A stretch of 64,000 bases of DNA, from positions 17,619-81,618 of the forward strand of contig CAZPFS010000003.1 in the NCBI GenBank assembly GCA_964585925.1, given 5' to 3'. The notes beneath the pieces were generated by a model. It was not told the DNA's origin. It saw nothing but the letters and a program-made list of their open reading frames with translations, and did not search any database. The stretch's first letter is position 1; the number at the start of each line of letters is the position of its first letter. This stretch comes from an uncultured Syntrophomonadaceae bacterium (GTDB taxonomy: Bacteria > Bacillota > Dethiobacteria > DTU022). A program made the translations under genes and the position numbers. Positions 34,838 to 52,415 of the stretch are shown in pieces.

Positions 34838-34941
34838 TTTGCAATACCCCCTGATTTTTATTTACATATGTTGTTAGTTGGCATCGGCACCGCGTTGATT
34901 TATTTGTTGGATCACCCCATTTTGGTTGATTGCCGAAGGGA

Positions 34942-36675
34942 TCAGATTTCCTTCAGCAGTTCCAAAGAACAATTCAAGGCATCATAGCATTGATTTCTTC
35001 TTCTCATTGCCCTGGTATAATGGGTTTTGTAATTTTCGCTCTCTACCGGAAATCTTTCAAGACGTTCGAGATCCGTAAGGCCGGGCAATGGATTTTTTAA
35101 ATCCGACAGGCCATATGTGTCCTGCCCGTATCTGCCGATCACGGTATGCCTGACAGGCAGCGTGTACCGACACAATTTCATGAGGATCTTATTGATATTT
35201 TTTATTTGTTCACTGGCTATGGTCATTTTTTTCAGATCACCCTTGAGCTGTTCCAATTTTTTTGCCTTCTCCGTAAATCCATTGTTCAACTCGATCAGGC
35301 TGCTGATATCAATATCATGCTTTTCACCCATTTTTTCCAGCCTGGATAACCGCTGGGTAAATTCATCAGCCACACTGCAAAATTCAAAAGGCAAAATATC
35401 CCGATTCAGCATTTCCCATACAAAACCGGCATTGCACCTCAGATCCCTCATCAGAACATTTTCATCAACCTTGTCAATGGTGTCCAGATCGCTGTGATAC
35501 CACCAGCCAAGAATAGCTCCTTTCCATTTGGCTATTTCTTGGTGAGAATGCATGGAAAGACCAAACAGGGATGGAATACCTATTCCAAAAAATGATTGGT
35601 CGCCAATCTTGTCCTGCCGTATTTCATCATAAGGAGTATCCTTTAAAAATTTTGCGGCAACCTGACGGGCAAACAGTTTTAATTCAGCTGTGCTCCAAGC
35701 GACAAACCGTGAGGCTCCCAACATGCCCGGGGAATCAATGTTTAAATAGGCGATCCCATTGTTTTGCAACTGGCTCCAGTTATGATCCACATACCATGTG
35801 GAGCCTTCCATAATGCCTGTTTCATGGCCGGGCCAAAATCCAATGACCACACTCCTTTTTAAACGAGGTTGATTTTGGGCCAAAACACGGGCAATTTCCA
35901 TGGTAACAGCGTTTCCCGTCGCATTGCAGGTAACCCCTGCATTCCAGGCATCATAGTGCCCCCCCACCACAATAAATTTTTCAGGTTCATCATTACCCTG
36001 AATAAAGCCAAGCGGTTCAATAATTTTACGCCACTCCCGCGTACATTCGCTTTTGATCCAAAGCGTTACCTTCCCGCGCCGGCAGAGCTCTATTAAACGA
36101 TCGCCGTCTTTCCTCATGATGCTGACAACCGGTATTTTAGGCATCTGCTTGATATCTTCAGGTGTTGGATTGCCCCAGGGAGCTTTAACCGTCCCATACG
36201 TTAAATTTTCAAACTCAGGAGATCCCCAATTTGCCATTACAACCGCAAGAGCGCCGTTTACGGTGGCAATTCGTACCTTTTCGGGACGCGGGGGATCATA
36301 TGACAAGTCAAGCAAAACTATCTTGTTTTTAACATCTAAGCCGTTATACCTTTCCTCTTTGCCCTCCCCAAGATATACAACTTCTCCTTCCAATCCCTCT
36401 TTGGGAGTGGACACACCTTGCGCAAAAACAGAACAAGGTAATTCTGCAGCTTCAGGCGCTAAAATTTTTAACCGGCCGCTTATGGGGAAGGAAACCAAAC
36501 CATCCAGGTAATGTAAATGTGTATCTACCCCTGCCCCTTGCAGTTCGGTTTGGATATAGCGGGAAACCTCTTTTTCCACCTCAGTACCGGATAATCGCTC
36601 CTGAGCTATGTCGGTAATGTTATTGATATCTTTAAATGTCCTGGAAATTGAAAGTTGATCGATATAATCCAGCAT
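34942..36675 (-). CDS. M28-family metallopeptidase with a PA (protease-associated) domain (glutamate-carboxypeptidase-II / transferrin-receptor-like)
   Basis: 577 aa with Zn-ligand regions (GGHYDAW, GHETG). The domain order is PA, then peptidase, then a dimerisation-like C-terminus. Confidence 0.6.
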   Translation of the reverse strand: MLDYIDQLSISRTFKDINNITDIAQERLSGTEVEKEVSRYIQTELQGAGVDTHLHYLDGLVSFPISGRLKILAPEAAELPCSVFAQGVSTPKEGLEGEVVYLGEGKEERYNGLDVKNKIVLLDLSYDPPRPEKVRIATVNGALAVVMANWGSPEFENLTYGTVKAPWGNPTPEDIKQMPKIPVVSIMRKDGDRLIELCRRGKVTLWIKSECTREWRKIIEPLGFIQGNDEPEKFIVVGGHYDAWNAGVTCNATGNAVTMEIARVLAQNQPRLKRSVVIGFWPGHETGIMEGSTWYVDHNWSQLQNNGIAYLNIDSPGMLGASRFVAWSTAELKLFARQVAAKFLKDTPYDEIRQDKIGDQSFFGIGIPSLFGLSMHSHQEIAKWKGAILGWWYHSDLDTIDKVDENVLMRDLRCNAGFVWEMLNRDILPFEFCSVADEFTQRLSRLEKMGEKHDIDISSLIELNNGFTEKAKKLEQLKGDLKKMTIASEQIKNINKILMKLCRYTLPVRHTVIGRYGQDTYGLSDLKNPLPGLTDLERLERFPVESENYKTHYTRAMRRRNQCYDALNCSLELLKEI

Positions 36676-36757
36676 TTACATCACCCCTTATAAATTTATA
36701 GATTTCAAAACGGACAAAATTTTTAAAAGGCACCTTGTCCCGCAAAAAATAGGTGAA

Positions 36758-37660
36758 TCAACGATTCCTTAAAAATACCGGCAATTGTTCCTCTTTTTGA
36801 CCCTTGTATTGGCAGTGTACAACAACATGATCGACCTTGGTGTTTTTCGCCTGTTGGGCGGATCTGATATCACAGGTCTCACAAATGGCTTTTCTCGGCA
36901 TCAGCGGAGGCTCGCCTTTGATCGACTCTATCAGGCTGATTGCTTTTTCAAGAGCCGCGCTGTCTCCCTCCGCAATCAAGCTTACCGAACCTTCCGAACC
37001 GCCGTGGCCTCCGGAGGCGACATGAAAGCCGTCAACTCCGGTCAGAATCTTCAATGCTTCGATTTCCGTGATTACCCTGGCCCCTGTAAGCGGAATCATT
37101 CCAAGTTTCATGCCGCTGCAATAATCGAGTTTTTGTATCCCGCACAGCTCAACAGACTGTTTTACCGAAGGCACCATTTTTTCCAAACCGACGGGAGAAA
37201 TAATTTGTATCCCCTGGGCTAAAAGCATTCCTATAGCCCATCCTACAGCTCCTCCTTCCGGATGGCCGACAAAAGCTGCAACGTTGCCTTCCCTATCCAG
37301 GGCATTGGCGCCTTTAACAAAAACTGAGTTTTTATCAAACTGGACCAACATCTCGGCCATGGTGGGGGTGGGGGGTTGAATTTCTCCCCTGTCAATAAAC
37401 AAACTGATCGGTTTCTCTTCAACCAGCGTTTGGCAAGTAACCCCTTTGGTCAGAACCCCGGATAGATACTTATTCCGGTCAAACAGCTCATTAAATTTTT
37501 CTTTTCCCAGGATTTCTTCCGCCACATATACATTTGTTGATCCCAATTGGATATGCAACTTGCCGTTTCTTAAAGCGTTTTTTATCTCCTTCATTTCGGC
37601 AACGCCTTTTCCAATAAGCCTTTTTGATTCAGCAGGTGTTAGTACAAATAATGCACGCAT
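36758..37660 (-). CDS. Conserved hypothetical protein (300 aa), operonic with the CyuA-like gene upstream
   Basis: No family recognised. It has a Gly-rich segment (ASGGHGGSEGS) and a C-terminal Cys/His cluster (ICETCD...VVVHCQ). Confidence 0.4.
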   Translation of the reverse strand: MRALFVLTPAESKRLIGKGVAEMKEIKNALRNGKLHIQLGSTNVYVAEEILGKEKFNELFDRNKYLSGVLTKGVTCQTLVEEKPISLFIDRGEIQPPTPTMAEMLVQFDKNSVFVKGANALDREGNVAAFVGHPEGGAVGWAIGMLLAQGIQIISPVGLEKMVPSVKQSVELCGIQKLDYCSGMKLGMIPLTGARVITEIEALKILTGVDGFHVASGGHGGSEGSVSLIAEGDSAALEKAISLIESIKGEPPLMPRKAICETCDIRSAQQAKNTKVDHVVVHCQYKGQKEEQLPVFLRNR

Positions 37661-37828
37661 TTGATTCCCTCCTTAAATATAGTAACCAACCGCTGATTTT
37701 GAGGCAGCCGATAAACACCCATATTTGCTAAAATATTTCGGTACATTTCGGCTCTACCTCACTTATTCCTGCATTTCCCCTCACTACGAAAAAGATTGGA
37801 ATACCCCAACTGTTTGGTTTTATTCCAA

Positions 37829-39253
37829 TTATCCCATGGATTCGATAATCTGAACCAAGGCTTTATCCGCGCACTGCATTCCTTTGTTGACCAGGAAGGA
37901 AGCGTTGCCAATAGTGTGTTCGGCGCCGGGACCAACAATTCCGTCCTTGGGCTGAATAACAACACCCCGTATCGCCAGCATAGCGGCATCATAAGCGGTG
38001 CTTGCAGCCACAGAGAGTTTTAAGGCACAGCCTCCTTTGGCACCGTCGCAGATCATTCCGGCAAGAGCGCCGATAACATTGATCACCGCCGCCTGTAAAT
38101 CCAGATCGCTGCCGCCCTGTAAATACGCCAGCGCGGCTGAAGCCCCTGCACCGGCGGCAATTGCACACCCGCAAACGGGGGTCAGAATTCCAATTTTTGA
38201 TTTTATGTATATAGTTATCAGAGTACTCAGCGCAATGGCTCTTAAAACATTTTCCTCTGAGATCTTATTTATCTCTGCAAAGGTGCCAATCGGAACAATG
38301 GCGGTAATACCCTGGTTTCCGCTCCCCGCGATAGCCGCTACCGGAAAATCCAAACCATTCATTCGCACATCACAGGCTGCCGAAGTGAGAATCTTTATTC
38401 GATTGAATAGATGCAAATTGGATGTTTTTGCTTTTGTATCCCCATATATTTCCTGCAAAGCCGCGCCAAAAAAATTAACCCCTACCTCTTTTAAACCTGC
38501 CCGGGCTATTTGCATATTCATTTCCCAGCTGTCACTTAGAAATTCAATTTCTTTGGGATCAATTTCATGTATAAATTTGATTATTGCAGCCAAATCCAAT
38601 CCATCAAGGGCGCTTCCTTTGTAATTACCTGCTCCGCAGGGATTGCAAAGAATTGCATTTCCGTTATGCTCCAAACAAACGACATTCGTATGGTTTCCTG
38701 TAATCAGACAGCGACCGTGATCGCTGTCAGTCTTTATACAAACATCAATGTATAGGCCAAATTGCTCGCGTATTTTTATTTCAATTAATGACGCGTTTAC
38801 CATTTTTATGGCTTTACCAATGTCATCTTCATTGATGTCCTTTAAAACCTCCAATTGGTATTGCGGTTTCCCGGCAATCACGCCCAATGCCACCGCATAG
38901 TCAAGCCCTTTTAGGGTTGTCCTAGGAATCGTAACTCGCAGACAATTTTTATAAAAATTATTATCCACCAAAACCGTTATTGACTTAATTTCACCGGATG
39001 TTTTTTCCCTTGCCAGCGCTCCCGCATAGGCCAAAGCCACAGGTTCAGTGCAGCCCAAAGCCGGCTGTATATTGCTTTTTAAAATGTTTAGTACAGCTTC
39101 CTCGTTCAAAATATAATCACCTGCTTCTTCATATTCATCAACTGCTGTATCCTTGTTAAATACAAACAGCAATATGCATGCCATGTCTGGATTGCGGCGC
39201 TGCAATTGCTTTTTCAGGAAAATCACTGTTACGCAAACCGGAAACTTTATCAT
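37829..39253 (-). CDS. UPF0597 / serine-dehydratase-like protein of the YhaM (CyuA) L-cysteine desulfidase family
   Basis: Motifs shared with E. coli YhaM: ALGCTEPVALA, GNHTNVV, GSGNQGITA, MICDGAKGGCALK. The tracked start may be ~30 aa too early. Confidence 0.65.
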   Translation of the reverse strand: MIKFPVCVTVIFLKKQLQRRNPDMACILLFVFNKDTAVDEYEEAGDYILNEEAVLNILKSNIQPALGCTEPVALAYAGALAREKTSGEIKSITVLVDNNFYKNCLRVTIPRTTLKGLDYAVALGVIAGKPQYQLEVLKDINEDDIGKAIKMVNASLIEIKIREQFGLYIDVCIKTDSDHGRCLITGNHTNVVCLEHNGNAILCNPCGAGNYKGSALDGLDLAAIIKFIHEIDPKEIEFLSDSWEMNMQIARAGLKEVGVNFFGAALQEIYGDTKAKTSNLHLFNRIKILTSAACDVRMNGLDFPVAAIAGSGNQGITAIVPIGTFAEINKISEENVLRAIALSTLITIYIKSKIGILTPVCGCAIAAGAGASAALAYLQGGSDLDLQAAVINVIGALAGMICDGAKGGCALKLSVAASTAYDAAMLAIRGVVIQPKDGIVGPGAEHTIGNASFLVNKGMQCADKALVQIIESMG

Positions 39254-39403
39254 ATTGATAAATATAGCCGTCCGGAATTAGCCCTATGCTCCCTTTTCTT
39301 CCCGCAATCCCGGTATTATCATATTGATAATAAGCATTTATTATAGTTACCAAATGTCTAAATCGTTCAATAGCAGGAGAAGTTTAAGGATAAGCGAAGT
39401 ATA

Positions 39404-41212
39404 TTGAATAGGTTGCCAAATGCCAAACAACAGGGCTTGCTCGCCAGGTTTATGGGGAATACTGCCTGTGATCCTGAGGAAGGGGTTTTCATGCAAAACA
39501 TTGCCGAAGTTATTGCAAGTGTATTGAAATTAGATGTAACTATTGTAGACAAAAATTTGAGCCGGGTCGCCGGCACGGGCTATTATTTTGATAAAGTGAA
39601 CACATTAATACCCTGTGGCTCTTCTTTTGATTTTGTACTAAGCACCGGCAAGAAGATGGTAATATCCAATGTGGGAGATGGCCTATGTCAGGGATGTTCA
39701 ATGCGGGAGAGTTGCGTTGAATTGGCCCATGTATGTTGCCCCATATGTATCGAAGAAAAACCAATCGGCGTCCTGGGCCTGGTAGCCTTTGATTCGGAAC
39801 AACGCAGCCGTTTGTTAAATGCATTGAATGACTATGAGGATTTTTTAGATCAAATATGTAATTTAATTGCCGCAAAAATTCGCGGAGATGAAACTATCGA
39901 CGAATTGCTGGCGGCGCATAGCCAGATCAGCATTATTATGCAGACTGTCAATGAAGGCATGATGCTTGTTAATGATCAGGGTCGGGTAACTTATTGCAAC
40001 AAGGCTTCGGAAATCCTTCTTGAAACCCCCGCCGGGCTTATTGTTGGTCGGCACATTAAAGAAATATTCAACGATACCGAAATGGACTGGTCAAAACCAC
40101 TGCAAGAGGATTTTGAATTCAGAGAAGTAACCAGGGTGGAACAAAATCATAGAATCAGTTGCTTTGTTACCAACAAGCCCGTGCAGGTAGACCATAAGTA
40201 CCTTGGAGCGGTCCTAACCTTTTACACGGCAAGCACCGTACACAGGTTGGTGGGGGAATTTTCCAGTGATCAGATAGATCATAGCTTCAATACTATCCTC
40301 GGCAACAGCAAGGCCATTGTAGAATGTAAGCACCAGGCCGCTTTGGCGGCAAAAAGCAACTCCACCGTCTTGATTACCGGCGAAACGGGCACCGGCAAGG
40401 ATCTGTTGGCGCGTGCGATACATAGTTCCAGCAGTAGAAAGGAAAAAGCTTTTATTGCCATAAACTGCGCGGCTATTCCGGAAACACTGCTGGAGAGTGA
40501 ACTTTTTGGTTATGAGGAAGGGGCATTTACCGGGGCAAAAAAGGGGGGGAAACCGGGTAAATTTCAATTGGCCGACGAGGGCACCCTGTTTCTTGATGAA
40601 ATTGGAGACATGCCCCTATTTTTGCAAGTTAAATTATTGCGTGTACTTCAGGAAGGCTCTGTAGAGAGGGTAGGAGGGGTAAATAAAATCCCGCTCAATG
40701 TGCGTATTATTGCCGCTACCAACCGCAATTTGGGGGAGCTTACAAAGCACGGTGAGTTCAGGGAAGATCTTTTTTATAGAATTAATGTTATTCCCATCGA
40801 GATCCCCCCTTTGCGCGAAAGATCCTCCGATGTTAGGATTCTTATTGATCATTTTTTGGAACATTACGGCAAACTGCTGGAGAAGCCATACCTGCGTTTC
40901 TCACCGGAAGCGCTGCAACTTTTGTGCAATCACAATTGGCCCGGTAATGTGCGGGAGTTGGAAAACATTGTGGAATATGCTGTGAATATGGCCACTGCAG
41001 GTAGAATTACCGTTGAAAATTTACCTAAAAAATTACAAATAGACAAAGATACGGAAGCGGTTACACCTCTGGCGGAATTGGAAAAAAAGGAACTGCAGAA
41101 GGCCCTTAACTATTTTGGAAATACTACAGAATCCAAGAAAAAAATATCATCTGCCCTCGGAATCAGCATCGCTTCGGTATATCGTAAATTAAAACTGCAC
41201 GGCTTGGCTTAA
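39404..41212 (+). CDS. Sigma-54-dependent transcriptional activator (GAF-like Cys-rich sensor, PAS, AAA+ sigma-54 interaction domain, Fis-type HTH). The likely start is ATG ~39491 (MQNIAEVIAS..).
   Basis: Walker A GETGTGKDLLARAIH, the GAFTGA motif (EEGAFTGA), ESELFGYE, and a C-terminal HTH. RBS GAGGAAGGGG before 39491. Confidence 0.85.
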   Translation: MNRLPNAKQQGLLARFMGNTACDPEEGVFMQNIAEVIASVLKLDVTIVDKNLSRVAGTGYYFDKVNTLIPCGSSFDFVLSTGKKMVISNVGDGLCQGCSMRESCVELAHVCCPICIEEKPIGVLGLVAFDSEQRSRLLNALNDYEDFLDQICNLIAAKIRGDETIDELLAAHSQISIIMQTVNEGMMLVNDQGRVTYCNKASEILLETPAGLIVGRHIKEIFNDTEMDWSKPLQEDFEFREVTRVEQNHRISCFVTNKPVQVDHKYLGAVLTFYTASTVHRLVGEFSSDQIDHSFNTILGNSKAIVECKHQAALAAKSNSTVLITGETGTGKDLLARAIHSSSSRKEKAFIAINCAAIPETLLESELFGYEEGAFTGAKKGGKPGKFQLADEGTLFLDEIGDMPLFLQVKLLRVLQEGSVERVGGVNKIPLNVRIIAATNRNLGELTKHGEFREDLFYRINVIPIEIPPLRERSSDVRILIDHFLEHYGKLLEKPYLRFSPEALQLLCNHNWPGNVRELENIVEYAVNMATAGRITVENLPKKLQIDKDTEAVTPLAELEKKELQKALNYFGNTTESKKKISSALGISIASVYRKLKLHGLA

Positions 41213-42597
41213 CCGCCTGCTTCAGTTCTAAACTGGTTTAAAATAGACAAATAATCATCCGGCGTATCCAGATCCATCAATATTTCCGGTGCATCCACTT
41301 CCACCGGACAAAGATCACGATCGCTCAAGCAATGGAGCAACTGGCTTCCTCCCCGGTCTCCCTTTAGCTCCATCAACATGGGCCAGGTCCGGCGATCAAA
41401 CAGCACGGGGTTTCCCCGGCGGCCCCGGTAAGTGGGATATACGGCCAGGGGAAGACGGCTGCGGTAGCGTTCAAGCAAACTGCTATAGACCCGGGCCGGA
41501 ATAAACGGCTGATCCCCCAGTATAAACATGGCTCCCTGGGAGGTGGCAGACACCTGAGAAAGCCCTGCCTGTAAAGAGGTGGAAATCCCCAGCTGCGCAC
41601 GTTCGTTGATCACAACCTTCAGCTTGAACCTGGACAGGCGTGCGCCCAGCCAGGCTGTTTCCGGGTTGATCACCACAATGATCTCACCGTCACTAGACCG
41701 GATCAGGTTTTGCAGGGTCTGTTCCAGCACGGTGGAGTCGCCAAGTTCCAGGGTCATCTTGTCTTTGCCCATGCGCCTGGACAAACCGGCTGCCAGCACC
41801 ACCCGGGACACCTCCGGCGCCGCCCTTTCCCCGCTTATGCCGAAAATAAATTGCAGGGGCACCGGCCGGCAGGCAGAGGTAAAAACAATATGGCGAATAT
41901 CATCAATGCCCGCCGTCAAATCGGCTATTTTTGTTATTATCCCGGGATCAGAAATCAGATCTGCCTGATTGAATACCGGCACCGTGCGGGCTCCCGGGGC
42001 CTGGCGGCAGCCCAGTTCAACCATCCATTTCATGCCGCGTACCAGGTGCTCGGCGGTGATGGTTTCACCCATCTGCATCCGGGCAATTATCGAAAATAGT
42101 TCCGGCCGGTGGACTGTCCCCGGGCTCAGGGCGGTTCCCAAACCGATCAAACCCATTACCGGCAGGGCTAGGCCGGAATCTGGGGGCAGTACCGGCTCAT
42201 GGGAGGCATACCCTTTAAGCGGTTTTCTCGCCGCCCCGTCGCATTCCGCTAAAGCAAAGGATACTTCCGGCTCCGAGACGATCCGCCCCGGCCAGGAAGG
42301 ATCTATCCCCTTGAGCTTGCCTTCCGGCAGCAGACCTGCGGCCAGGACTACCGGATCCCTCCCGGCGGGCAGTAGTCTCAATTTGCGGACAACTTCAGTC
42401 AGCGTTCCGGCCAAGATCAGGGGGAAAGAAGGATGTTGGAAGATCTTGGTGGTGGTGGTTACTACTACCTTTTTCTCCCCTCCGGCCAGTTCGCCCGCCA
42501 GCAGATACAGCAGGGATGTTTTTCCCCCGGCCCCGTATATGGATATTATTTCTTTCTGCTTGATCCCCAAACAGGATGAAAGCAGCAAATTATTCAT
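41209..42597 (-). CDS. Fusion of a YqeC-type selenium-dependent-hydroxylase accessory protein (N-terminus) with a MocA/MobA-like molybdenum-cofactor cytidylyltransferase (C-terminus)
   Basis: The N-terminus has a P-loop-like GAGGKTSLLYLLAGEL. The C-terminus has the MobA-like VLAAGLSRRMG.DK.......TVLE...N signature. 462 aa versus two separate genes (yqeC, mocA) in E. coli. Confidence 0.65.
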   Translation of the reverse strand: MNNLLLSSCLGIKQKEIISIYGAGGKTSLLYLLAGELAGGEKKVVVTTTTKIFQHPSFPLILAGTLTEVVRKLRLLPAGRDPVVLAAGLLPEGKLKGIDPSWPGRIVSEPEVSFALAECDGAARKPLKGYASHEPVLPPDSGLALPVMGLIGLGTALSPGTVHRPELFSIIARMQMGETITAEHLVRGMKWMVELGCRQAPGARTVPVFNQADLISDPGIITKIADLTAGIDDIRHIVFTSACRPVPLQFIFGISGERAAPEVSRVVLAAGLSRRMGKDKMTLELGDSTVLEQTLQNLIRSSDGEIIVVINPETAWLGARLSRFKLKVVINERAQLGISTSLQAGLSQVSATSQGAMFILGDQPFIPARVYSSLLERYRSRLPLAVYPTYRGRRGNPVLFDRRTWPMLMELKGDRGGSQLLHCLSDRDLCPVEVDAPEILMDLDTPDDYLSILNQFRTEAGG

Positions 42598-42617
42598 CTT
42601 TCGCCTTCCCGATTGTT

Positions 42618-43046
42618 TTACCCCATGGCCTCAAAATATTTGTCAAACAGCTCCAGAAACAGATGCCGGGCTTCTTCCTGAAACAAGGCGAACTTCATTA
42701 CCAGACCCCTCCCCTCCGGGGTCAGTTCAGAGCCTCCCCCTGAGTTGCCGCCGATGGTTCTGGTAAGCAGCGGAAACCCCAACCGCCTTTCCAGCAAATC
42801 TACCAGCCGCCAGGCCTGGCTGTAAGACATGCCGATCTCTTTGGCCGCGGCCCTGAGAGACCCGGTCCGTTCAACCCGGTTCAAGATATCGCAGGGGCCG
42901 TCCCCAAATACCTTTTTTCCCCGGTCCTCCAGCCAGATCTTGCAACCGGGCTCAAGGTTCATTTTGTTCACCCTTGGCTTCCGGGGTGCGGCCATCAAAT
43001 ACCCGCCTCCGGACCGCAATGATCTCCGAAAGAATACTGACCGCAA
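42618..43046 (-). CDS. ModE N-terminal-like winged-helix regulator (molybdate-responsive type). The probable start is ATG at 42962 (MNLEPGCKIWLED..).
   Basis: GSLRAAAKEIGMSYSQAWRLV matches the ModE N-domain HTH. The tracked ORF overlaps xdhC by 95 nt; the shorter form overlaps by 11. Confidence 0.55.
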   Translation of the reverse strand: MRSVFFRRSLRSGGGYLMAAPRKPRVNKMNLEPGCKIWLEDRGKKVFGDGPCDILNRVERTGSLRAAAKEIGMSYSQAWRLVDLLERRLGFPLLTRTIGGNSGGGSELTPEGRGLVMKFALFQEEARHLFLELFDKYFEAMG

Positions 43047-43776
43047 TTTCGGCAGGGGTCTCGGCCCCTATCTTGAGCCCGATAGGAGCATGAACCCGGT
43101 CCAGATCTTTGGGATCGACCCCCAGATCACGCAAGTTGCTGAATGTGGCCTCCACCTTTTGGGCACTGCCGATCATTCCCAGATAGGGGACAGGTGAGCC
43201 GATGGTTTTTTCAAGGGCCAGCTGATCGTATTTATGGCCGCGGGTAATTATGGTGATATAAGTCTGCGGTCCAATATGGGCCTGTTCCAGCAACTCTCCG
43301 ATTTCCCCTACCAGCAGTTGGTCGGCGGAGGGAAAAAGATCGCGGTTGCAGAACTCCTCCCGATCATCCAGCACGGTTACCGCAAGGCCGATCATTTTGG
43401 CCATTGCCGCCAGGTGCTGGGAAATATGCCCCGCCCCCACTATAAGCAAAGTTTCGGGAGTCAGAAAGGGTTCAATAAACAACGCCGCTTCCCCGCCGCA
43501 GATCATGCCGGCACTTTCCCCCTCCCGGGCAGTCAACTGCCTCTGATAGAGGCGGCAGCAGTTTTTTTCCATCACTTCGAGGGCAACCTGTATCGCCTCT
43601 TCCTCCAACTCTCCTCCCCCCACGGTACCTGTTTTTCTCCCCCGGGAATCCACCAGCATTTTAAAACCAACCCTGGCCGGGGCGGAGCCTTTTGTCTCCA
43701 CCACCGTTACCAATGCCGCCGGTTCCCCTTTTTCAACTGTTTTCAACAGCTCCCGATACACTTCCAGCACCTTCAA
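42952..43776 (-). CDS. xdhC: XdhC/CoxI-family molybdenum hydroxylase maturation factor
   Basis: XdhC N-domain (PAALVTVVETKGSAPARVGFKMLV) plus a Rossmann C-domain (LLIVGAGHISQHLA). 274 aa. Confidence 0.8.
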   Translation of the reverse strand: MKVLEVYRELLKTVEKGEPAALVTVVETKGSAPARVGFKMLVDSRGRKTGTVGGGELEEEAIQVALEVMEKNCCRLYQRQLTAREGESAGMICGGEAALFIEPFLTPETLLIVGAGHISQHLAAMAKMIGLAVTVLDDREEFCNRDLFPSADQLLVGEIGELLEQAHIGPQTYITIITRGHKYDQLALEKTIGSPVPYLGMIGSAQKVEATFSNLRDLGVDPKDLDRVHAPIGLKIGAETPAEIAVSILSEIIAVRRRVFDGRTPEAKGEQNEP

Positions 43777-44807
43777 TTACCTCCTTTGCCGAAAGAACAG
43801 TTGGGAAAACGACAGGGCGAGCAACCCCGGCAAAGCCCTCCGTGCCCCAATTTGGAAATATGCCGGGCAGTAATTTTTTCACCGGTTAAAATGCGGGGCA
43901 GCAGAACATCGAGTATGGTGGTTCGAAAATACATGGCGCAGGCCGGCAGTCCTATAACCGGAATCTCGCCCAAGTAGGAGAGCATGAACATGGCCCCCGG
44001 AAGCACCGGCGCGCCGTACTTTACCAGCTCCGCCCCGGACAGTTTGATCCCGGTGGGGGTGACATCATCCGGGTCTACCGACATTCCCCCGGTCACAATT
44101 ACCATCCGGCATCCTTTTTCCAGAAGCTTATTGATGGCCGCAGCAATCCGGGGAGCATCATCATCCACGTAAAGCAGGTGAGGATCATCCAGGCCAAAAT
44201 AAGCCGCTTTCCCTTTAATCACGGGAGCAAATCCATCCTTTATCCTGCCGTTTTTTATTTCATGACCGGTAATAATTACTCCCAGGCTTATTTTGTAATA
44301 CTGAAGAACACTGAGCGGATAACAACCCGGTGAGCAGATCTGCTCCACCTGCCGGATAGTATGATCGGAGACCACCAACGGTATTACCTTTACCCCGGCA
44401 ACCTTTTCCCCCTTGTCGACCGGTGAATTGGTATGAATGGTGGATACAACCACCTCCGGAAGACTGTTTAAGGCATTTATCTGTTCAACATCGATCTTTA
44501 AAAGCCCTCTTTGAAGAGAAACCAGGTTTATACGGCCCTCGGAGGGTCCCTCCAGCTGCAGCCCGGAACCGGCCAGCATCCGGGCAATTTTCTCCCCCGC
44601 TTCATCCTCATGGAGATCGCCGGGTTCCAGTTCAATGGAATAGATATGCCGCTTTCCCAGATCCAATAAAACCGGTACATCCTCCGCCGTGATCCGGTGG
44701 CCCTTTTTGAACCGGGGCCCCTTGAAGGTCCCTTTTTCTATTTTGGTAATATCATGACAGATTATTTTGCCAATGGATTCTTCGGTTTTATAATTACTGA
44801 TTTTCAT
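43773..44807 (-). CDS. Molybdopterin-binding (MoCF-biosynthesis, MogA/MoeA-like) domain protein with a unique N-domain and a Cys-rich tail
   Basis: MoCF signature RMVIVTGGMSVDPDDVT. The C-terminus is CRGCSPCRFPNCSFG. It is operonic with xdhC. Confidence 0.55.
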   Translation of the reverse strand: MKISNYKTEESIGKIICHDITKIEKGTFKGPRFKKGHRITAEDVPVLLDLGKRHIYSIELEPGDLHEDEAGEKIARMLAGSGLQLEGPSEGRINLVSLQRGLLKIDVEQINALNSLPEVVVSTIHTNSPVDKGEKVAGVKVIPLVVSDHTIRQVEQICSPGCYPLSVLQYYKISLGVIITGHEIKNGRIKDGFAPVIKGKAAYFGLDDPHLLYVDDDAPRIAAAINKLLEKGCRMVIVTGGMSVDPDDVTPTGIKLSGAELVKYGAPVLPGAMFMLSYLGEIPVIGLPACAMYFRTTILDVLLPRILTGEKITARHISKLGHGGLCRGCSPCRFPNCSFGKGGN

Positions 44808-44920
44808 CTTTTCACCTCGTTTGCCTTGAACAGCTTTTGCTCACAAAATCTTGCCCAAATCCTGAAAGCGCGACCATGATCGTTATTTGTTTGTAAGCAT
44901 AACGGTCTTAAAAAAAATAT

Positions 44921-45715
44921 TCAGGGCAGGAAATGCAACACCGCCTCCAGCACACCTCCTCCCACGGCTCGGGCCTTGTCGGAGATGGACCGGAAGTCAA
45001 CCTCCGCCCCTCGGGGATCTACATCTCCCACCTTCATTCCCTTGCTTGCCGGGAGGCCATTATAGAGCAGACCCCGCACCAGACCGTCGGTTCCCGCCGC
45101 CACGGGAATGCGGCCTACCTCCGCCACCGGCTGGCCCGTTTCAACCAAATCGCCAATTTTGACCAGAGCTTTGAATATCCCATCCGCCGGCGCCCGGAGA
45201 AGCCTTCCCGCCGCCACCCCGGAAACCCCCCCCGGAATACCGGTATTTTCGGCAGCGCTTCCCTGGTAATATACTTTTCCCAGATCGTGCCCGCGCTTGG
45301 TCTCTATTACGGCGTGAACCTCCTGCCCGGCTTCAAATCCCGGCCCCAGTCCGATTACCACCCGGGCATCGCCGATCCTGGTGGTGGTGGCTGTTTTGGC
45401 CATTACCGCATCCACCAGCACCTCCGGCTGAAGTTTCTGCACCAGGCAAGACTCCGGATCGATCAGCACTGCTATCTCCCGGCCATCGATCACCCGGTAA
45501 GCCTCCTCCGCCGTGGCACAAAGCCTGGCCCGAACCCCTTCCACCTCAAAAAGCCCTTCATACACTGCCGAGGAAAAGGCTACTGTGCGCCTCACTGTGA
45601 GGGGCCGGGGAAGTTCCAGCATGATCTGCCGGAAACCGGCCCTGTGCAGGCGGTGTGCCACCCCCGAAGCCAGGTCCCCCGCTCCCCTGATAATTACCGT
45701 CTGTGAAAATTTCAT
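44921..45715 (-). CDS. Rossmann-like SDMH accessory protein (YqeB / EF2563-family-like, TIGR03309-type)
   Basis: 264 aa. N-terminus VIIRGAGDLASGVAHRLHRAGF. It is the first gene of the minus-strand accessory operon, and its family assignment is from memory. The plus-strand ORF 44933..45706 is judged to be the antisense artefact. Confidence 0.5.
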   Translation of the reverse strand: MKFSQTVIIRGAGDLASGVAHRLHRAGFRQIMLELPRPLTVRRTVAFSSAVYEGLFEVEGVRARLCATAEEAYRVIDGREIAVLIDPESCLVQKLQPEVLVDAVMAKTATTTRIGDARVVIGLGPGFEAGQEVHAVIETKRGHDLGKVYYQGSAAENTGIPGGVSGVAAGRLLRAPADGIFKALVKIGDLVETGQPVAEVGRIPVAAGTDGLVRGLLYNGLPASKGMKVGDVDPRGAEVDFRSISDKARAVGGGVLEAVLHFLP

Positions 45716-45743
45716 CGATATTTAACAACCTTTCCGGATTAAT

Positions 45744-45774
45744 TTGTCGCCATGGGGATAGGCCTGGGCTTAAG
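45744..45774. repeat. Solitary degenerate REP-like unit (ggggataggcctgggcttaagatatgtcccc)
   Basis: It shares the ggggatag... / ...atgtcccc arms with the units at 940-970 and 985-1013. Confidence 0.5.
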
Positions 45775-45809
45775 ATATGTCCCCGCGATTTGGTAACCCC
45801 TATTTGTTT

Positions 45810-46100
45810 TCCTTTGAGTAAATCCCTTTAAATCCCCCTAAATCCCCCTTTAAAAAAGGGGGACTTTTTCGGCTGCCCCTTTAAAAAAGGATGCCTCTTG
45901 GATTATCATCTGGAATAAATTGCCTCACTGCCCTTTTAAAAAGGGATACCTTTTTTGGCTTATCACTTATCATTTAAAATGAATTGCCTCACCTTGCTCT
46001 TTTATTAATAAGAAGGATTTGTTTTGCTTACTCCTTAAAAAGACTTAATTGCCTCACCTTGCCCTTTTATGGGGGGACTTTTTCGGCTGCCCCTTTAAAA
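45810..46100. repeat. Repeat-dense AT-rich intergenic block with about six copies of the inverted repeat CCCCTTT-AAA-AAAGGGG, two copies of gggggactttttcggctg, three copies of aattgcctcacYtg, and a triple aaatcccYtt direct repeat
   Basis: Copies at 45834-45852, 45866-45880, 45921-45935, ~45990-46006 (degenerate), 46051-46066 (variant) and 46083-46097. It lies upstream of the SDMH accessory operon and downstream of the xdh operon. Confidence 0.7.
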
Positions 46101-46151
46101 AAGGGGGCCGGCTTCTTTCATTTTTATCCCTTTCGCCGTAAATCTAAAAAT

Positions 46152-46177
46152 CCCTGCCCCTTGGCCAAGGGGCAGGG
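46152..46177 (-). terminator. Rho-independent terminator of the xdh operon (and possibly bidirectional)
   Basis: Perfect 11-bp stem ccctgcccctt-ggcc-aaggggcaggg, followed on the minus strand by aTTTTT and on the plus strand by a T-rich run. It lies 15 nt past the Mo-subunit stop. Confidence 0.75.
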
Positions 46178-46192
46178 ACCACAAAATATTGT

Positions 46193-48574
46193 TTATTTTT
46201 GATCCTTGATCGCCTGCAGCACCCTTTCCGGAGTCAGGGGGAAGGTAGTCAACTCGATCCCTATCGCGTCGGCTACTGCGTTGGCAATGGCGGGACCAAC
46301 GGCAATCATAGGTTGCTCACCGATCCCGCGCACCCCAAAGGGACCGTCTTTTTCCGGTGTTTCCAAGGCAAATCCCTTTAGATAAGGGGTGTTCTCAATA
46401 GTTGGTATCTTGTAGTCGGTAAAGTTCGGATTTAAAATTCGGCCTTGGTCCAACTTGATCTCCTCATAAAGGGCGGTCCCCAGACCCATAATAGTCCCCC
46501 CGTGGATCTGAACCAGGCATTGCTGCGGGTTTACCGCCTGCCCCACATCCAGAGCCGTGGCCAACTGCAGGACAGTGATTTCACCAGTTTCCGGGTCTAC
46601 CTCCACCTCGGCTGCAGTAGCTCCAAAGGTCCAGAACATGCCTGGATTCCCCTGCCCGGTTTCGGGATCAAGATTGGTCATCTTGGAAGGAATATATGAT
46701 CCCCGGCCGATGATCGGCCCATGGATCCCCTCGCCGGTAGGCTTTTTATAGCTGTCGGCCAGGATTCTCAAAGGAACCTGTTTCGATCGGTCCTTTTTCC
46801 AGTATACCGTGTCATCTTCCAGTTCCATTTCCCCGGCCGGCACCCCCAGCTCCAGTGAACCCAGTTCCAGTATCTGCCGGCGGGCATCTTCCGCGGCCTT
46901 TATCACCGCATGCCCCAAAGCATAGGTGGTCCGGCTGCCTACGGTCTGCCACTCGTAGGGACTGTAATCGGTATCGGGAATACGGATGGCAAATTTCTCC
47001 ACCGGGATTTTCAATGTTTCAGCGGCAATCTGGCACATGGCGGTCAGCATGCCCTGCCCCATCTCGGTTGCGCTTACCGAAAGATGAACGGTACCGTCCT
47101 CATTAATCCGGATAATCGCCGAGGAGGAAGCATTGCTGGGCTGGGCCGGCGCTTTCACCAGACCGGCCAGACCTTTTCCGCGGAATTTCCCGCTATCCCG
47201 CTTACGCCACTCCACCGCTTCGGCTGCCGTCCGCAGGCAGTTCATAAAAGATGAATCCTCTATTTTCTGTCCGGTAGCGGTAGTGGATCCCTCTTTCATT
47301 CCATTGAGGAGACGCACATCCAGCGGGTCCAGTCCCAGTTTTTTAGCAATTTCATCCATTTGCCGTTCAATGCCCCACTGCATCTCGCACATGCCAAAGC
47401 CCCGCACCGGGCCGCCTACCGGGTTGTTGGTATAAACACAATAAGAATCCGTCTTGATATTTGGAATATCATACGCCCCGGCAGAGCTGTAAGCCGCCGC
47501 TCGGGTAATATTTACACCATATTCGGTGTAAGCCCCCCCGTCCCAGATCATTTTGTACTCCATGGCCGTGATCCGGCCATCTTTGCGCACCCCGGTTTTC
47601 AGGTGGCCATACATCGCCTGGCGGGTAAAAGTGCACTGCATATCTTCTTCCCGGGTGTACACTACGCGCACGATGTATCCGGGGCATTTTCTGGCCAGGG
47701 GTATAACCAGCCCCTCCATGGTGGCCCCGGCTTTGCCGCCGAACCCGCCGCCGATATAACTGGAAACGACTCTAATTTTGTGCAGGGGCATCCCCAGACA
47801 TTTGGCCAACAGTTGCCGCACGGTAAACGGAGACTGGGCGGTGCTCCAGACCGTCAACTTACCGTCAAAGCCCCATAGAGCGGCCGCTTTATGGGTTTCT
47901 ATGGTCACATGCTGCATCTGAGGAACATAGTAATCCCCTTCGATGATCAGATCTGCCTCGGCAAATCCCTCTTCCACATTCCCTTTGCGGATTTTGCTGT
48001 GATTGCTGATGTTTGTTCCCGCTTCAGGGTAAAAAATAGGAACAACCTCGTAGCTCCCCAGATCCTCATGAATCAATGGCGCGCCGGGTTTCATCGCCTC
48101 CAGGGGATTGAATACCGCCGGAAGTTCTTCGTATTCCACCTGGATCAGATCTACAGCCTGTTGGGCTATATCTTCCGTGGTGGCAGCAACCGCGGCCAGC
48201 GGTTCTCCGAAAAAGCGGACCTTATCCACGGCAAAGAAAGTCCGGTCAACCAGATAAAGCCCCACCCGGTTACGGGAACATTCTTTCCCGGTCGCTACTG
48301 CCCTTACGCCCGGCAAAGCCTCCGCCCGGCTGGTATCTATCCGTTTTATCCGGCCGTGGGGGATAGTCGATTTTTTAATTTTGGCATAAAGCATGGGGGC
48401 CATGCTCAGATCCTCAATATATCTGGCACTGCCGGTCACCTTTTCCTCCGCTTCTATCCGGGAATATGTTTTCCCCACATAGGTTAAGGATGGCATATTT
48501 TCTCCTCCTTTCCTCCTTACTTGGAGCAGGCTTTGATCGCCTGCCGGATTTCCTGATAGGCCCCGCAACGGCAC
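46193..48574 (-). CDS. Xanthine dehydrogenase-family molybdopterin-binding large subunit (purine hydroxylase, SDMH context). The probable start is ATG at 48496 ([11 protein letters not shown]..).
   Basis: Aldehyde-oxidase/xanthine-dehydrogenase a/b hammerhead and MoCo-binding domains across ~770 aa. Strong RBS AGGAGGAGAAAAT before 48496. Confidence 0.85.
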
Positions 48575-48987
48575 AGGTTGCCGCTCAGCGCCTCGCTGAT
48601 CTCCTCATCATCCGGATTGGGGTTCCGGTTTAACAGGGCCCGGGCTGAAATAATCACCCCCGGCGTGCAGTAGCCGCATTGAAAGGCGGCGTGATCGATA
48701 AATGCCCGCTGAACCCGATCCAGCTCTCCATTTTTAGCCAGCCCTTCAATGGTTACCAACTCTTTCCCTTCCAGCTCCGCCGCCAGCACCAGGCATGAGT
48801 TTATCGGCACCTCATTCAACAGCACCATACAGGCGCCGCACTCCCCTACCTCGCATCCTTCCTTGGTTCCGGTAAGTTTCAGCTCTTCCCGGATGAAGTT
48901 GAGAAGGGTCTGCTGGGGACAGACCTCCCGGATCTCCTTCATACCGTTAACAGTAAATGAAATGGTCAGCTTTCCGGACATGAGCAC
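48517..48987 (-). CDS. Xanthine dehydrogenase-family [2Fe-2S] small subunit
   Basis: Plant-type ferredoxin Cys motif ([12 protein letters not shown]) and a second 2Fe-2S motif (CGYCTPG...CRCGAY). 156 aa. Confidence 0.9.
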
Positions 48988-49808
48988 ACCTCCCTGGTCT
49001 CTTCCAGTCCGCGGCGCACCAGAACTTCAGCCAGATGGTAGCGGTATTCCCTGGAGCCCCGCAAATCCGTGATGGGAGAAATGTCATTCTTGACCAGTCC
49101 GGCCGCTTGGGACAGATCTGTTATGTTATCCGCATTGATTGCTTTTTCTACCGAAACAGCTCTAACCGGGGTGGGAGCTACCGCTCCCAGGGCGATTCGG
49201 ACCTCCCCGCGCCATCTCTGGACGGCCACCCCTACCGTAGCCAGATCCACCGAACGGGTCCGGGAGATTTTCTTGTAAACCCCTTTTCCCTGGGGGTAGG
49301 GCCGGGGAATAACCACTGCCGTTACCAGTTCTCCTGCCTTGAGGGCACTTTTCCCGGGACCGGTAAAAAATTCTTCGATGGGAACGCTGCGCCTTCCGTC
49401 CGGTCCGGCTATCTTGACCCGCGCCCCCAGGCAGTACAGGGGAGCGGCGGTATCCGCTGCCGGGGAGGCATTGCAGATATTTCCCACCAGGGTAGCCCGG
49501 TTGCGGACAGAATAAGAGCCGATGCTGTGGCAGCCTTCCGCCAGAACCGGCACATTTTTTCTCACCGGATCGAACCGCAGGATCTGATTCAGGGTTACCC
49601 CGGCGCCGATAGTAATTCCGTCCTGATCTTCTTTCAGTATTTTCAGCTCTTCAATGTCCTTGATATCCACCAATTGCCGGGCTTTGAATTTGCCACCCCG
49701 GATTCCCACCAGCAGATCCGTGCCACCGGCCAACAAATAAGTGCCCTCCGTTTCCAGCCACTTCATGGCCTGGGAAAGGTCGGAACACTTTTGATAAGTA
49801 AACGGCAT
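48966..49808 (-). CDS. Xanthine dehydrogenase-family FAD-binding medium subunit (CoxM-like)
   Basis: FAD-binding PCMH-type domain (AGGTDLLV) and a CO-dehydrogenase flavoprotein C-domain. 280 aa. Confidence 0.85.
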   Translation of the reverse strand: MPFTYQKCSDLSQAMKWLETEGTYLLAGGTDLLVGIRGGKFKARQLVDIKDIEELKILKEDQDGITIGAGVTLNQILRFDPVRKNVPVLAEGCHSIGSYSVRNRATLVGNICNASPAADTAAPLYCLGARVKIAGPDGRRSVPIEEFFTGPGKSALKAGELVTAVVIPRPYPQGKGVYKKISRTRSVDLATVGVAVQRWRGEVRIALGAVAPTPVRAVSVEKAINADNITDLSQAAGLVKNDISPITDLRGSREYRYHLAEVLVRRGLEETREVCSCPES

Positions 49809-49890: not shown

Positions 49891-51189
49891 CTATTTGGCC
49901 AGCTCCTTCAGCGCCTCCACAAAGATCTCCATCGGCGGCAGAACAACGCCCGCCCCGATCTGCCCCACACCGGGTTCCTTGTGGGCAATACCGGTATTAA
50001 TTCGGGGCAGAATCCCTTTCTCCACCACTTTTAGGACGTCGATACCGGTGGGGGTGCCTTTAAAATCAAGAGCCGGGATATTGAAATTCTTGTTCTCCGC
50101 AAACGTAATCTCATACATCTCATTGGTAGCTTCATAAGCCATGCTGGGTTTCCCGCCAATGAAATTGACAATCGCCGGCGCTGCGGCCATGGCAAACCCG
50201 CCGATACCCACGGTTTCCGTGATCACGGAATCCCCGATATCGGGATTGGCATCATTTGCGGTAAACCCGGAGAAATAAAGCCCCTTCGGGGTCTGGCAGG
50301 GCGCGGTAAACCACTTGTCACCGGTGCCGCTGACCCGGATTCCAAACTCGGTACCGTTGCGGGACATGGTGCTCACGATGGAACTGCCCTCAATACCATG
50401 GGCGGCTACGGCCATGGTCTTGCAGGAGGCCATGATCGCGTTGAGGGACGTCAGATCGTTGCTATGCATAAAGGCCAGCACTTCCGCCGCGGCGGTAGGT
50501 TTGATCTCTTTGAAAAAGGGGCAGGTATTGGTCAGGTCAAGACGCGGGGTATCATATTCGCGCCGCCGGCCAAACTCAGTCTCGGCGATATAGGGGGCCA
50601 CGGTGCGGATAAACAAAGAAGTGGTGGCCCGGTTGCGGTTGTGTCCATCATCCCCCATATGCAGGGCCTGGGCAATGATCGATTTTATATCAACCCCCCC
50701 GGAGAGCTTGACCGCTTCTTTCAGCACAGTGGCATAAACCTCATCCAGCCAGCGCAGACGCCTGAGTACCCCCTCATCGTAAGCGCCATAACGAAGAACT
50801 TTCCCGTATCCTTCATTCATGTTGGAAAAAGTGTACCCGCCATGCTCTTTATCTTCAATAATAAACACCATCTGAGAAGGGGTGGTTACTCCGGCCATGG
50901 GCCCCACCGCATTGTAATGGTGGCAGGGAGCATACTCGATATCCCCGGAAGCAGCCAGTTCCCGGGCTTCTTCCACATTACGGGCCTTTTTTTCATGGAT
51001 TAAACCCCCAATAATCGCACCTTTCAGTGGCCCGCTCATGTTTTCCCAGGATATGGGGGGGCCGGCGTGAAGAATCAGGTTGTCCTTCATGCCCGGAATG
51101 ACATCTCTGGCCCGTCCAATATCCACCCATACGGGGCGGGAACTCATCATCCTTTCTACAGCTTTGAGATTTGCCTGATCTACACTCAT
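49891..51189 (-). CDS. DUF1116-family protein (YlbE-like; putative oxamate carbamoyltransferase component)
   Basis: 432 aa. Its size and placement next to fdrA and carbamate kinase match the E. coli fdrA-ylbE-ylbF-ybcF neighbourhood. The family assignment is from memory. Confidence 0.5.
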   Translation of the reverse strand: MSVDQANLKAVERMMSSRPVWVDIGRARDVIPGMKDNLILHAGPPISWENMSGPLKGAIIGGLIHEKKARNVEEARELAASGDIEYAPCHHYNAVGPMAGVTTPSQMVFIIEDKEHGGYTFSNMNEGYGKVLRYGAYDEGVLRRLRWLDEVYATVLKEAVKLSGGVDIKSIIAQALHMGDDGHNRNRATTSLFIRTVAPYIAETEFGRRREYDTPRLDLTNTCPFFKEIKPTAAAEVLAFMHSNDLTSLNAIMASCKTMAVAAHGIEGSSIVSTMSRNGTEFGIRVSGTGDKWFTAPCQTPKGLYFSGFTANDANPDIGDSVITETVGIGGFAMAAAPAIVNFIGGKPSMAYEATNEMYEITFAENKNFNIPALDFKGTPTGIDVLKVVEKGILPRINTGIAHKEPGVGQIGAGVVLPPMEIFVEALKELAK

Positions 51190-51219
51190 TTGATGGAACC
51201 TCCAGTTTCAAATTTGAGT

Positions 51220-51247: not shown

Positions 51248-51281
51248 GGGAGCCCGATAACTTACCGGATAACCATGCTGA

Positions 51282-52401: not shown

Positions 52402-52415
52402 GGTTATCCCCCCTG

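Follow-up and report, generated by a model that had tools for sequence, protein, structure and literature searches.

A YqeC-MocA fusion in a compact set of molybdenum cofactor accessory genes of an uncultured Syntrophomonadaceae bacterium, and a predicted SIMIBI-class NTPase fold for YqeC

The window analysed in this study is a 64,000-nucleotide stretch of DNA from an uncultured Syntrophomonadaceae bacterium (GenBank assembly GCA_964585925.1, contig CAZPFS010000003.1, positions 17,619 to 81,618). Between positions 41209 and 45715 its minus strand carries five genes assigned to the maturation of molybdenum cofactor (Moco). In the order of transcription, these are yqeB, a gene for a MoCF-domain protein, an xdhC-family gene, a gene for a winged helix of the type found at the N-terminus of ModE (ModE-N), and a single gene in which yqeC is fused to mocA (yqeC::mocA). 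A sequence-only reading of this DNA had proposed the five genes, and all of them were found where it had placed them, with their identities upheld by Pfam and NCBIfam profiles. The genes are closely packed: the MoCF and xdhC genes overlap by 4 nucleotides (nt) and xdhC and ModE-N by 11 nt, while 20 nt lie between ModE-N and the fusion gene and 113 nt between yqeB and the MoCF gene. YqeB and YqeC, the marker families of selenium-dependent molybdenum hydroxylases, share one transcription unit in the window.

The fusion gene (41209..42597, minus strand) encodes 462 amino acids (aa), and both domain families were recognized in the product by profile search. The YqeC domain occupies residues 1-255 (41833..42597) and the MocA-type Moco cytidylyltransferase domain occupies residues 263-462 (41209..41811). 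The N-terminal half is indeed YqeC, as the earlier reading had claimed, with a score of 122.8 bits against a cutoff of 73.05 for TIGR03172 (residues 17-216) and 110.6 bits against 27.6 for PF19842 (residues 18-166, E 1e-31). A GGAAGG ribosome-binding site precedes the start of the gene, the N-terminus is common to homologues, and the junction between the two domains aligns without gaps to 23 homologues. When proteins were clustered at 90% identity, more than 110 clusters of 440-500 aa, at 33-66% identity, contained both Pfam domains in one protein. We also surveyed the best 80 loci in GTDB contigs, taking one genome per species and recording the neighbours up to 10 kb away; in 79 of these loci a single open reading frame (ORF) encodes both domains. 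A frameshift, which had been named as a possible source of an artificial fusion, or an assembly artefact is ruled out by the ribosome-binding site, the gap-free junction, the number of clusters and the loci.

The architecture is widespread. Fusion loci were found in Syntrophomonadaceae, Dethiobacteria, other Bacillota, Moorellales, Desulfovibrionaceae, Syntrophales, Anaerolineae/Chloroflexota and Acidobacteriota, so that the phyla represented among the best loci are Bacillota, Desulfobacterota, Chloroflexota and Acidobacteriota; the closest relative (63% identity) is encoded in a metagenome-assembled genome (MAG) of Syntrophomonadaceae (locus L002). YqeC always precedes MocA, and the linker between them is short and conserved in length. 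An AlphaFold2 model of the whole fusion, built from a 24-sequence alignment, is one compact body with a mean local confidence (pLDDT) of 92.8 and a global fold score (pTM) of 0.90, in which about 5-7 residues link the last YqeC strand (248-255) to the first MocA strand (263-269). A profile search for the YqeC domain returned 5136 cluster representatives at E<=1e-10, and the best 150 of these included 67 YqeC::MocA fusions and 77 free YqeC proteins of about 255 aa. A comparison of fused with separate genes had been suggested from the sequence alone. The fusion does recur, and on a rough neighbour-joining tree of the YqeC domains of these best representatives the two states are interleaved, with at least 24 changes of state. 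The gene boundary has therefore been opened and closed repeatedly.

The modelled fold and the conserved motifs together show YqeC to have the fold of a SIMIBI-class P-loop NTPase, with nucleotide use as a predicted property. The comparison of the YqeC-domain fold with known structures gave figures of 10.5 for BioD, 10.4 for UreG, 9.6 for CooC and 8.8 for HypB, and weaker matches to NifH, MeaB and FtsY were obtained with Foldseek. An invariant P-loop, G22-x-G-G-K26-T27 (T/S), encoded at 42517-42534, follows the strand 17-22. T47-T50 are conserved at the end of strand 2, and the invariant E118-x-D120-G121 follows the hydrophobic strand 114-118, at the acidic Walker B position. A partly conserved N210-Q-A-D213, of the form N-(K/Q)-x-D, stands after the strand 208-210. 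Invariant or near-invariant residues specific to the family are K94, G97, K128, E134, P135, H163 and R164. The domain shares 32% identity with E. coli YqeC in a BLAST comparison, and GAGGKTS, TTTT, E-x-DG, EP and VHR occur in both proteins. A literature search, in a library that is incomplete, found neither a published fold assignment for YqeC nor a published mention of proteins in which ModE-N is fused to YqeC.

The second half of the fusion is of the MocA type and not of the MobA type, as judged from its profile scores and motifs, and cytidylyltransferase activity is predicted for it. PF12804 covers fusion residues 266-422 (E 5e-35). TIGR03310 (MocA) is by far the best nucleotidyltransferase model, spanning residues 266-451 and profile positions 3-187 of 188, whereas the MobA model TIGR02665 scores 33 bits. 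The TIGR03310 score of 171.3 bits falls narrowly short of the cutoff of 186.45, the domain being here part of a larger fused protein. The MocA-related structures 2we9 and 3d5n in the PDB were matched at E 1e-36 to 1e-39, compared with 1e-12 for MobA, and the Foldseek TM score of the domain was about 0.9 (target-normalised). In a direct alignment the N-terminal motif reads VLAAGLSRRMG in the window, ITAAGLSSRMG in E. coli MocA and VLAGGKARRMG in E. coli MobA; further on, the window protein has DLDTPDDY where MobA has NVNTPEEL. The difference between AAG and AGG reportedly separates the CTP-using from the GTP-using enzymes, as Neumann et al. described in J Biol Chem in 2011. E. coli MocA itself is the biochemically established synthase of molybdopterin cytosine dinucleotide (MCD), as Neumann et al. 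reportedly showed in the same journal in 2009.

The gene directly upstream of the fusion (42618..42962, minus strand) encodes the ModE-N-type winged helix, which matches PF00126 with 48.5 bits against a cutoff of 26.6. The mechanical ORF extends over 42618-43046. The ATG at 42962 is probably the true start, giving 114 aa, since it matches the N-termini (M..CKIWLE) of ten homologues; from there the gene overlaps the xdhC stop by the 11 nt given above. The protein has the motifs characteristic of the N-terminal winged-helix/dimerisation domain of E. coli ModE, GS(L/I)..AA...(M/I)SY..AW and GG..GGG. However, E. coli ModE is a protein of 262 aa with a C-terminal di-Mop domain, and profile search detected no Mop/TOBE domain in the 114-aa protein. 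The latter is not ModE proper, because it is shorter, lacks the di-Mop domain and scores 65.5 bits with the ModE N-domain model TIGR00637, under the cutoff of 98.5.

A free ModE-N gene is present in 8 of the 80 fusion loci, and in all 8 it lies directly upstream of YqeC::MocA. It adjoins the fusion upstream in L084/L085 (GCA_900198705.1) as well, where a ModE-N protein of 112 aa and YqeC::MocA form a two-gene module (9652-11380). The neighbours of this module are the sporulation and housekeeping genes dpaAB, dapA, RNase J, clpP and ftsK, and no molybdenum hydroxylase, YqeB or XdhC was found within 10 kb of it. The DNA upstream of the stand-alone module in L084 contains GATAAGGCGCGCCTTATC; no operator common to the upstream regions of the ModE-N genes was found in ten loci. 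From the adjacency and the isolated two-gene module it follows that the winged helix is part of the YqeC module and not merely the regulator of an operon. The sequence-only reading had described a ModE-like regulator. The ModE-N-type winged helix is present as described, but it lacks the molybdate-binding half and is a recurrent partner of YqeC, not simply an operon regulator.

Direct fusions of ModE-N with YqeC are known as well, from at least 34 protein clusters. These proteins (P0211, P0218 and P0260-P0290; L086, 10001-11131) are 362-408 aa long, carry ModE-N at the N-terminus and come from Clostridia-type genomes. Other boundaries within the gene set are shuffled as well. The entire order of the window, AllG-FAD-FeS-Mo-YqeB-MoCF-XdhC-ModE-N-YqeC::MocA, is found in L002, and a Clostridia-type genome (L086, GCA_040767605.1) has the same six domains in the order [ModE-N::YqeC]-MocA-YqeB-XdhC-MoCF340, with no molybdenum hydroxylase within 10 kb of the cassette. 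In at least 10 clusters of about 430-470 aa (P0219, P0247, P0301, P0305, P0308, P0310 and others), from deltaproteobacterial and Dehalococcoidia MAGs, a class I S-adenosylmethionine-dependent methyltransferase precedes YqeC in one protein. In Anaerolineae, triple fusions of 737-776 aa join YqeC and MocA to a HAD-IIA phosphatase (Hydrolase_6 plus Hydrolase_like), as in L034 (4949-7186), L038 (121-2331), L040 (8834-11161) and also L042. Other Chloroflexota loci (L061, L065, L068, L071 and L081) have a second MocA-like ORF right after the fusion.

The remaining three genes of the unit encode a YqeB, a MoCF-domain protein and an XdhC-family protein. The yqeB gene (44921..45715, minus strand; 264 aa) scores 340.2 bits with TIGR03309 against a cutoff of 220. 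It is a stand-alone ORF without the XdhC fusion seen in E. coli, and its product shares 52% identity with the C-terminal half of E. coli YqeB (residues 269-527) and 51% with the L086 homologue. The MoCF-domain gene (43773..44807, minus strand) encodes a MogA/MoaB-like protein of 344 aa, in which PF00994 (MoCF_biosynth) covers residues 176-306 (E 8e-19), weak PDB matches point to MogA and gephyrin-G, and the C-terminal tail contains C326-x2-C329-x2-C332-x4-C337 (CxxCxxCx4C). The protein is 43% identical over its full length to the member in the L086 cassette, with the Cys motif conserved, and a MoCF gene adjoins the fusion gene in 9 of the 80 loci. Residues 1 to about 170 have no Pfam or NCBIfam match, yet they are well conserved within that full-length identity; as judged from sequence, the protein combines an uncharacterised N-terminal domain with a MogA-like fold and a tail containing four Cys residues. 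The xdhC-family Moco chaperone (42952..43776, minus strand; 274 aa) contains PF02625 and PF13478, and its best NCBIfam match is NF045664 (XdhC_rel_AOR), with 279 bits, under the cutoff of 350.

The hydroxylase genes lie upstream of yqeB. A gap of 477 nt (45716-46192) separates yqeB from the gene for the molybdenum subunit, and an intrinsic-terminator-like hairpin with a 14-bp stem, 8 G-C pairs and a T-rich tail (46149..46180, minus strand) stands directly after the stop of the latter. The hairpin and the gap indicate that the five genes form their own transcription unit, separate from xdh. The region upstream of yqeB (45716..46148, minus strand), presumed to hold the promoter or operator, contains four copies of the palindrome CCCCTTTAAAAAAGGGG (at 45845, 45876, 45930 and 46090) and three minus-strand copies of GGTGAGGCAATT spaced 64-65 nt apart. 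Both elements are commoner in the window than chance predicts (7 matches where 0.31 are expected, and 3 where 0.53 are), and within the window they occur at this gap alone. Neither was found in related loci. Candidate explanations for these repeats are operator sites, a series of stacked hairpins, or a small repeat element that has decayed. A search of 45650-46250 against Rfam families gave matches at chance level only, and no riboswitch such as the Moco RNA motif reached the Rfam gathering score upstream of yqeB or ModE-N in the window, L002, L005, L084 or L086.

On the other side, the fusion gene is convergent with a plus-strand gene for a sigma-54 activator of the GAF-PAS type (39404-41212), for which the best model is PrdR at a sub-cutoff score. 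The stop codons of the two genes overlap by 4 nt (41209-41212) with no terminator between them, and transcription from both sides must therefore collide. The activator was considered as a regulator of the accessory unit and rejected, as there is no -24/-12 element upstream of yqeB. The overall count of -24/-12 matches was not above chance, and the single good match, TGGCATGCATATTGCT (39183-39168, minus strand), lies at the head of a divergent minus-strand operon (27050-39253), which the activator probably serves. Because this match falls inside the annotated 474-aa ORF, the start of that ORF is probably mis-set. The operon encodes an SDH_alpha-like protein, a 300-aa unknown protein, an M28 peptidase, a branched-chain-type ABC transporter, an amidohydrolase and an M20 peptidase. 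G+C content is 43-47% at 27000-40000 and 50-60% in the flanks (58-60% at 1-8 kb and 53-56% at 42-54 kb), which suggests that the 27-40 kb block was horizontally acquired.

The likely client of the unit is the three-subunit enzyme encoded by xdh (46193..49808, minus strand), with a flavin (FAD) subunit at 48966-49808, a 2Fe-2S subunit at 48517-48987 and a molybdenum subunit at 46193-48574. Its best models are XdhA/B/C_XDHase, all at sub-cutoff scores, with 4-hydroxybenzoyl-CoA reductase a close second, and TIGR03311 (Se_dep_XDH) gives 352 bits against a cutoff of 830. Further upstream (49891-62031), genes for AllG-like, cyclase, FdrA/AllF-like, carbamate kinase, PucR, xanthine/uracil permease, AllH-like, OTCase-like carbamoyltransferase and family III CoA-transferase proteins look like a purine/oxalurate-type catabolic island. 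The synteny AllG-FAD-FeS-Mo-YqeB-...-YqeC::MocA was found in 9 loci. In 9 related loci AllG stands immediately before the FAD subunit, which suggests that the hydroxylase is linked to oxalurate/oxamate metabolism in a conserved way.

The served molybdenum enzyme is probably selenium-dependent, which we infer only from the YqeB and YqeC markers, because SelD was not found in the 64-kb window. The absence of selD had already been noted and was confirmed: the sole AIRS/AIRS_C protein there is a 729-aa PurL (4563-6752). Thus, of the earlier description as a selenium-dependent hydroxylase unit, the markers stand and the selenium part hangs on them. The two proteins are the accepted marker pair of the selenium-cofactor trait (PMC2276186; PMC2432076; PMC5029168). 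Among the 80 loci, YqeB is near the fusion in 28 and a molybdenum subunit in 24, and YqeB is present in 17 of these 24. However, several observations loosen the tie between YqeC and selenium. Three loci (L003, L004 and L008) have a different molybdenum hydroxylase with MoCF, XdhC, ModE-N and YqeC::MocA, and no YqeB in the sequence examined, which in L003 is a short contig. Zhang et al. 2008 reported YqeC in four organisms that lack SelD (PMC2432076). In Clostridioides difficile, deletion of yqeC had no phenotype in growth on purines while deletion of yqeB mimicked that of selD (PMC11448449).

The best explanation of the region is a self-contained Moco maturation unit for the xanthine-dehydrogenase-family hydroxylase encoded upstream. 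In such a unit, the MoCF-domain protein would hold or prepare molybdopterin, and the MocA domain, by its homology to E. coli MocA, would convert Mo-molybdopterin and CTP to MCD. The YqeC domain, tethered to MocA by the short linker, may use the binding or hydrolysis of nucleotide to gate or assist MCD formation and hand-off. It would be the functional counterpart, in the MCD branch, of MobB, the adaptor that accompanies MobA and is often fused to it. XdhC would then take the cofactor, and YqeB would install the labile terminal ligand, which is presumed to be selenium supplied by selenophosphate (with SelD encoded elsewhere), before insertion into the apo-enzyme; this step is proposed because of the established role of XdhC and the C. 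difficile genetics. ModE-N would be a DNA-binding partner for which YqeC supplies the effector domain that replaces Mop, as the fusions and the strict adjacency suggest. The central proposal, that YqeC is a nucleoside triphosphate (NTP)-dependent helper bound to MocA and acts at the conversion of Mo-molybdopterin to MCD and at the hand-off to XdhC/YqeB, is given a probability of about 0.5. The role of a helper, as opposed to an essential catalyst, agrees with the C. difficile data, in which the yqeC deletion is silent but yqeB complements the yqeB yqeC double mutant only partly (PMC11448449).

Several points weigh against this proposal. Members from Anaerolineae and the YqeC of E. coli have lost the Asp of the NKxD-like motif, which bears on nucleotide specificity. 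The P-loop is two residues short of the canonical form. The invariant K94, K128, E134, H163 and R164 would suit an enzyme of the BioD/PurA type that acts on small molecules as well as they would an adaptor. Any binding and hydrolysis of nucleotide by YqeC is predicted, and the involvement of selenium is deduced from marker families.

The invariant charged residues outside the nucleotide motifs, together with the accepted YqeC/YqeB marker pair and the frequency of YqeB near the fusion (28 of 80 loci, and 17 of the 24 with a molybdenum hydroxylase subunit), would suit a different role. YqeC might be a selenium-specific SIMIBI enzyme resembling a kinase or ligase (BioD, PurA or CTP synthase type), which would spend NTP on activating either the selenium donor or the Mo=O/Mo=S position and would place the labile Mo=Se ligand on MCD as this is channelled out of the fused MocA active site, with YqeB and XdhC as carriers. 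This is unlikely, since the yqeC deletion in C. difficile did not share the purine-growth phenotype of yqeB and selD (PMC11448449), YqeC occurs in the four SelD-lacking organisms (PMC2432076), L003, L004 and L008 lack YqeB in the sequence examined, and the L084/L085 module stands alone among housekeeping genes. It is also conceivable that the fusion is neutral, a loss of the stop codon between translationally coupled neighbours that fixed a 1:1 stoichiometry, and that YqeC acts at any step of maturation. Adjacent and overlapping yqeC and mocA genes are common (PMC2432076), the at least 24 changes between fused and free forms mean that the boundary is evolutionarily cheap, and fusions within the same pathway join other pairs (XdhC::YqeB and YqeB::MocA) as well as YqeC::MocA to a HAD phosphatase in Anaerolineae. 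But the fixed YqeC-MocA order, the short linker of conserved length and the persistence of the fusion across several phyla at 30-66% identity are less easily reconciled with neutrality, and the pTM of 0.90 implies, as far as a model can, a defined interface rather than beads on a string. We consider neutrality to be quite improbable.

The ModE-N connection leads to a further possibility, namely that YqeC serves mainly as the cofactor- or nucleotide-sensing domain of ModE-N, in a split or fused one-component regulator that reports Moco/MCD status and controls the maturation genes, its attachment to MocA coupling sensing to the product. The ModE-N::YqeC fusions in at least 34 clusters would fit such a regulator, as would the position of ModE-N directly upstream of YqeC::MocA wherever it is present, including the isolated two-gene module, and the lack in the window protein of the Mop domain that makes ModE responsive to molybdate; the palindromes upstream of yqeB could be its operators. 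On the other hand, a fused ModE-N is the exception among YqeC genes and is lacking in those of E. coli and C. difficile, and only 8 of the 80 fusion loci have a ModE-N neighbour. No operator is common to the upstream DNA of ten ModE-N genes, related loci do not contain the palindromes, and the invariant NTPase motifs of catalytic type argue for more than sensing. Sensing as the main function is thus very unlikely. A bolder form of the helper proposal combines these elements: YqeC would be no selenium factor at all but a SIMIBI NTPase in an obligate module with MocA and a Mop-less ModE-N, an NTP-gated hand-off device that doubles as the effector domain of a transcription factor for Moco status. 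We put this forward as an unlikely idea. If it is true, the definition of the selenium cofactor trait by YqeB plus YqeC lumps together two different steps, one for selenium (YqeB) and one for MCD in general (YqeC).

What is at stake is how the labile selenium (or sulfur) ligand is placed on the cofactor of anaerobic purine-degrading hydroxylases, enzymes that matter for the disposal of urate by gut bacteria. With the fold assignment and the wider set of fusions YqeC becomes accessible to experiment, as a predicted P-loop NTPase for which candidate catalytic residues can be named (K26, T27, E118 and D120). MocA appears as a hub, with YqeC or YqeB as its alternative fusion partners, and a small ModE-N protein is tied to YqeC by fusions and adjacency. 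ModE-N, YqeC, MocA, YqeB, XdhC and the Cys-tailed MoCF protein constitute a compact recurring cassette with shuffled boundaries, and provide a defined set for reconstitution.

The fusion in the window is a new instance of a known and widespread architecture, tabulated in 2008. Fusions of XdhC to YqeB, and the occurrence of yqeB, yqeC and ygfJ as neighbours, are on record from Haft & Self 2008 (PMC2276186). In Table 1 of Zhang et al. 2008 (BMC Genomics 9:251, PMC2432076), a fusion of HP2 (YqeC) to COG2068 is listed for Moorella thermoacetica (2089404-2090771), HP1::COG2068 (YqeB::MocA) fusions are reported from Carboxydothermus, Dorea and two Ruminococcus species, and in most of 32 genomes yqeC is directly followed by a MobA-related gene, often with overlapping stop and start. 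XdhC::YqeB fusions, too, are listed in that paper. Those authors read the fusions as evidence of a functional link, so that the central argument of the sequence-only reading, that the fusion ties YqeC to the MCD step, was already in the literature. The physical link between YqeC and the MCD-forming enzyme remains a reasonable argument, and it is strengthened here by the conservation in at least 79 species representatives, the linker and pTM, the tree and the adjacency of the unfused genes. The Moorella protein, of about 455 aa, likewise consists of YqeC followed by the MobA-related domain and adjoins HP1/YqeB, XdhC and a molybdenum hydroxylase subunit; the window differs in organism and operon order, and Zhang et al. 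2008 gave neither a fold assignment for HP2 nor a linkage of ModE-N to YqeC (PMC2432076). The E. faecalis locus contains a ModE-type gene, EF2572.

In E. coli, b2875-b2877 (yqeB-yqeC/mocA, ygfJ) provide the same XdhC, YqeB, YqeC and MocA domains, in a purine-catabolism/molybdenum-hydroxylase region, and identities to the window proteins are 52% for YqeB, 32% for YqeC and 26% for MocA. There, however, XdhC and YqeB are fused (541 aa), yqeC and mocA are separate, adjacent and divergently transcribed, and the stretch examined contains no ModE-N gene and no counterpart of the 344-aa MoCF gene. The MobA::MobB proteins (NCBIfam NF011056; Geobacter GSU3147, PMC2700814) likewise join a Moco nucleotidyltransferase to a P-loop NTPase helper. 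They differ in the reversed order, with MobA N-terminal, in a MobB of about 170 aa with a canonical P-loop, and in the addition of GMP and not CMP. MobB is dispensable in vivo, and in this it resembles YqeC in C. difficile. Comparison of the YqeC profile with E. coli MobB matched only 29 columns of the P-loop at a probability of 33%, with no homology detected beyond the P-loop; MobB is therefore, in this comparison, an analogue of YqeC and not a homologue at a detectable level.

The sole genetic test of yqeB and yqeC so far is the study of Johnstone & Self 2024 on C. difficile (PMC11448449). The C. difficile cluster of yqeC, mocA and a 'molybdopterin cofactor biosynthesis protein' gene, downstream of xdhA1-xdhB1, has the same neighbours as the window, but the genes are unfused and yqeB lies elsewhere in the genome. 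YqeB and YqeC were described there as having 'no known predicted domains', whereas YqeC of the window is here given a P-loop NTPase fold. To the architecture known from these systems, the present analysis adds this fold assignment and a wider network of fusions.

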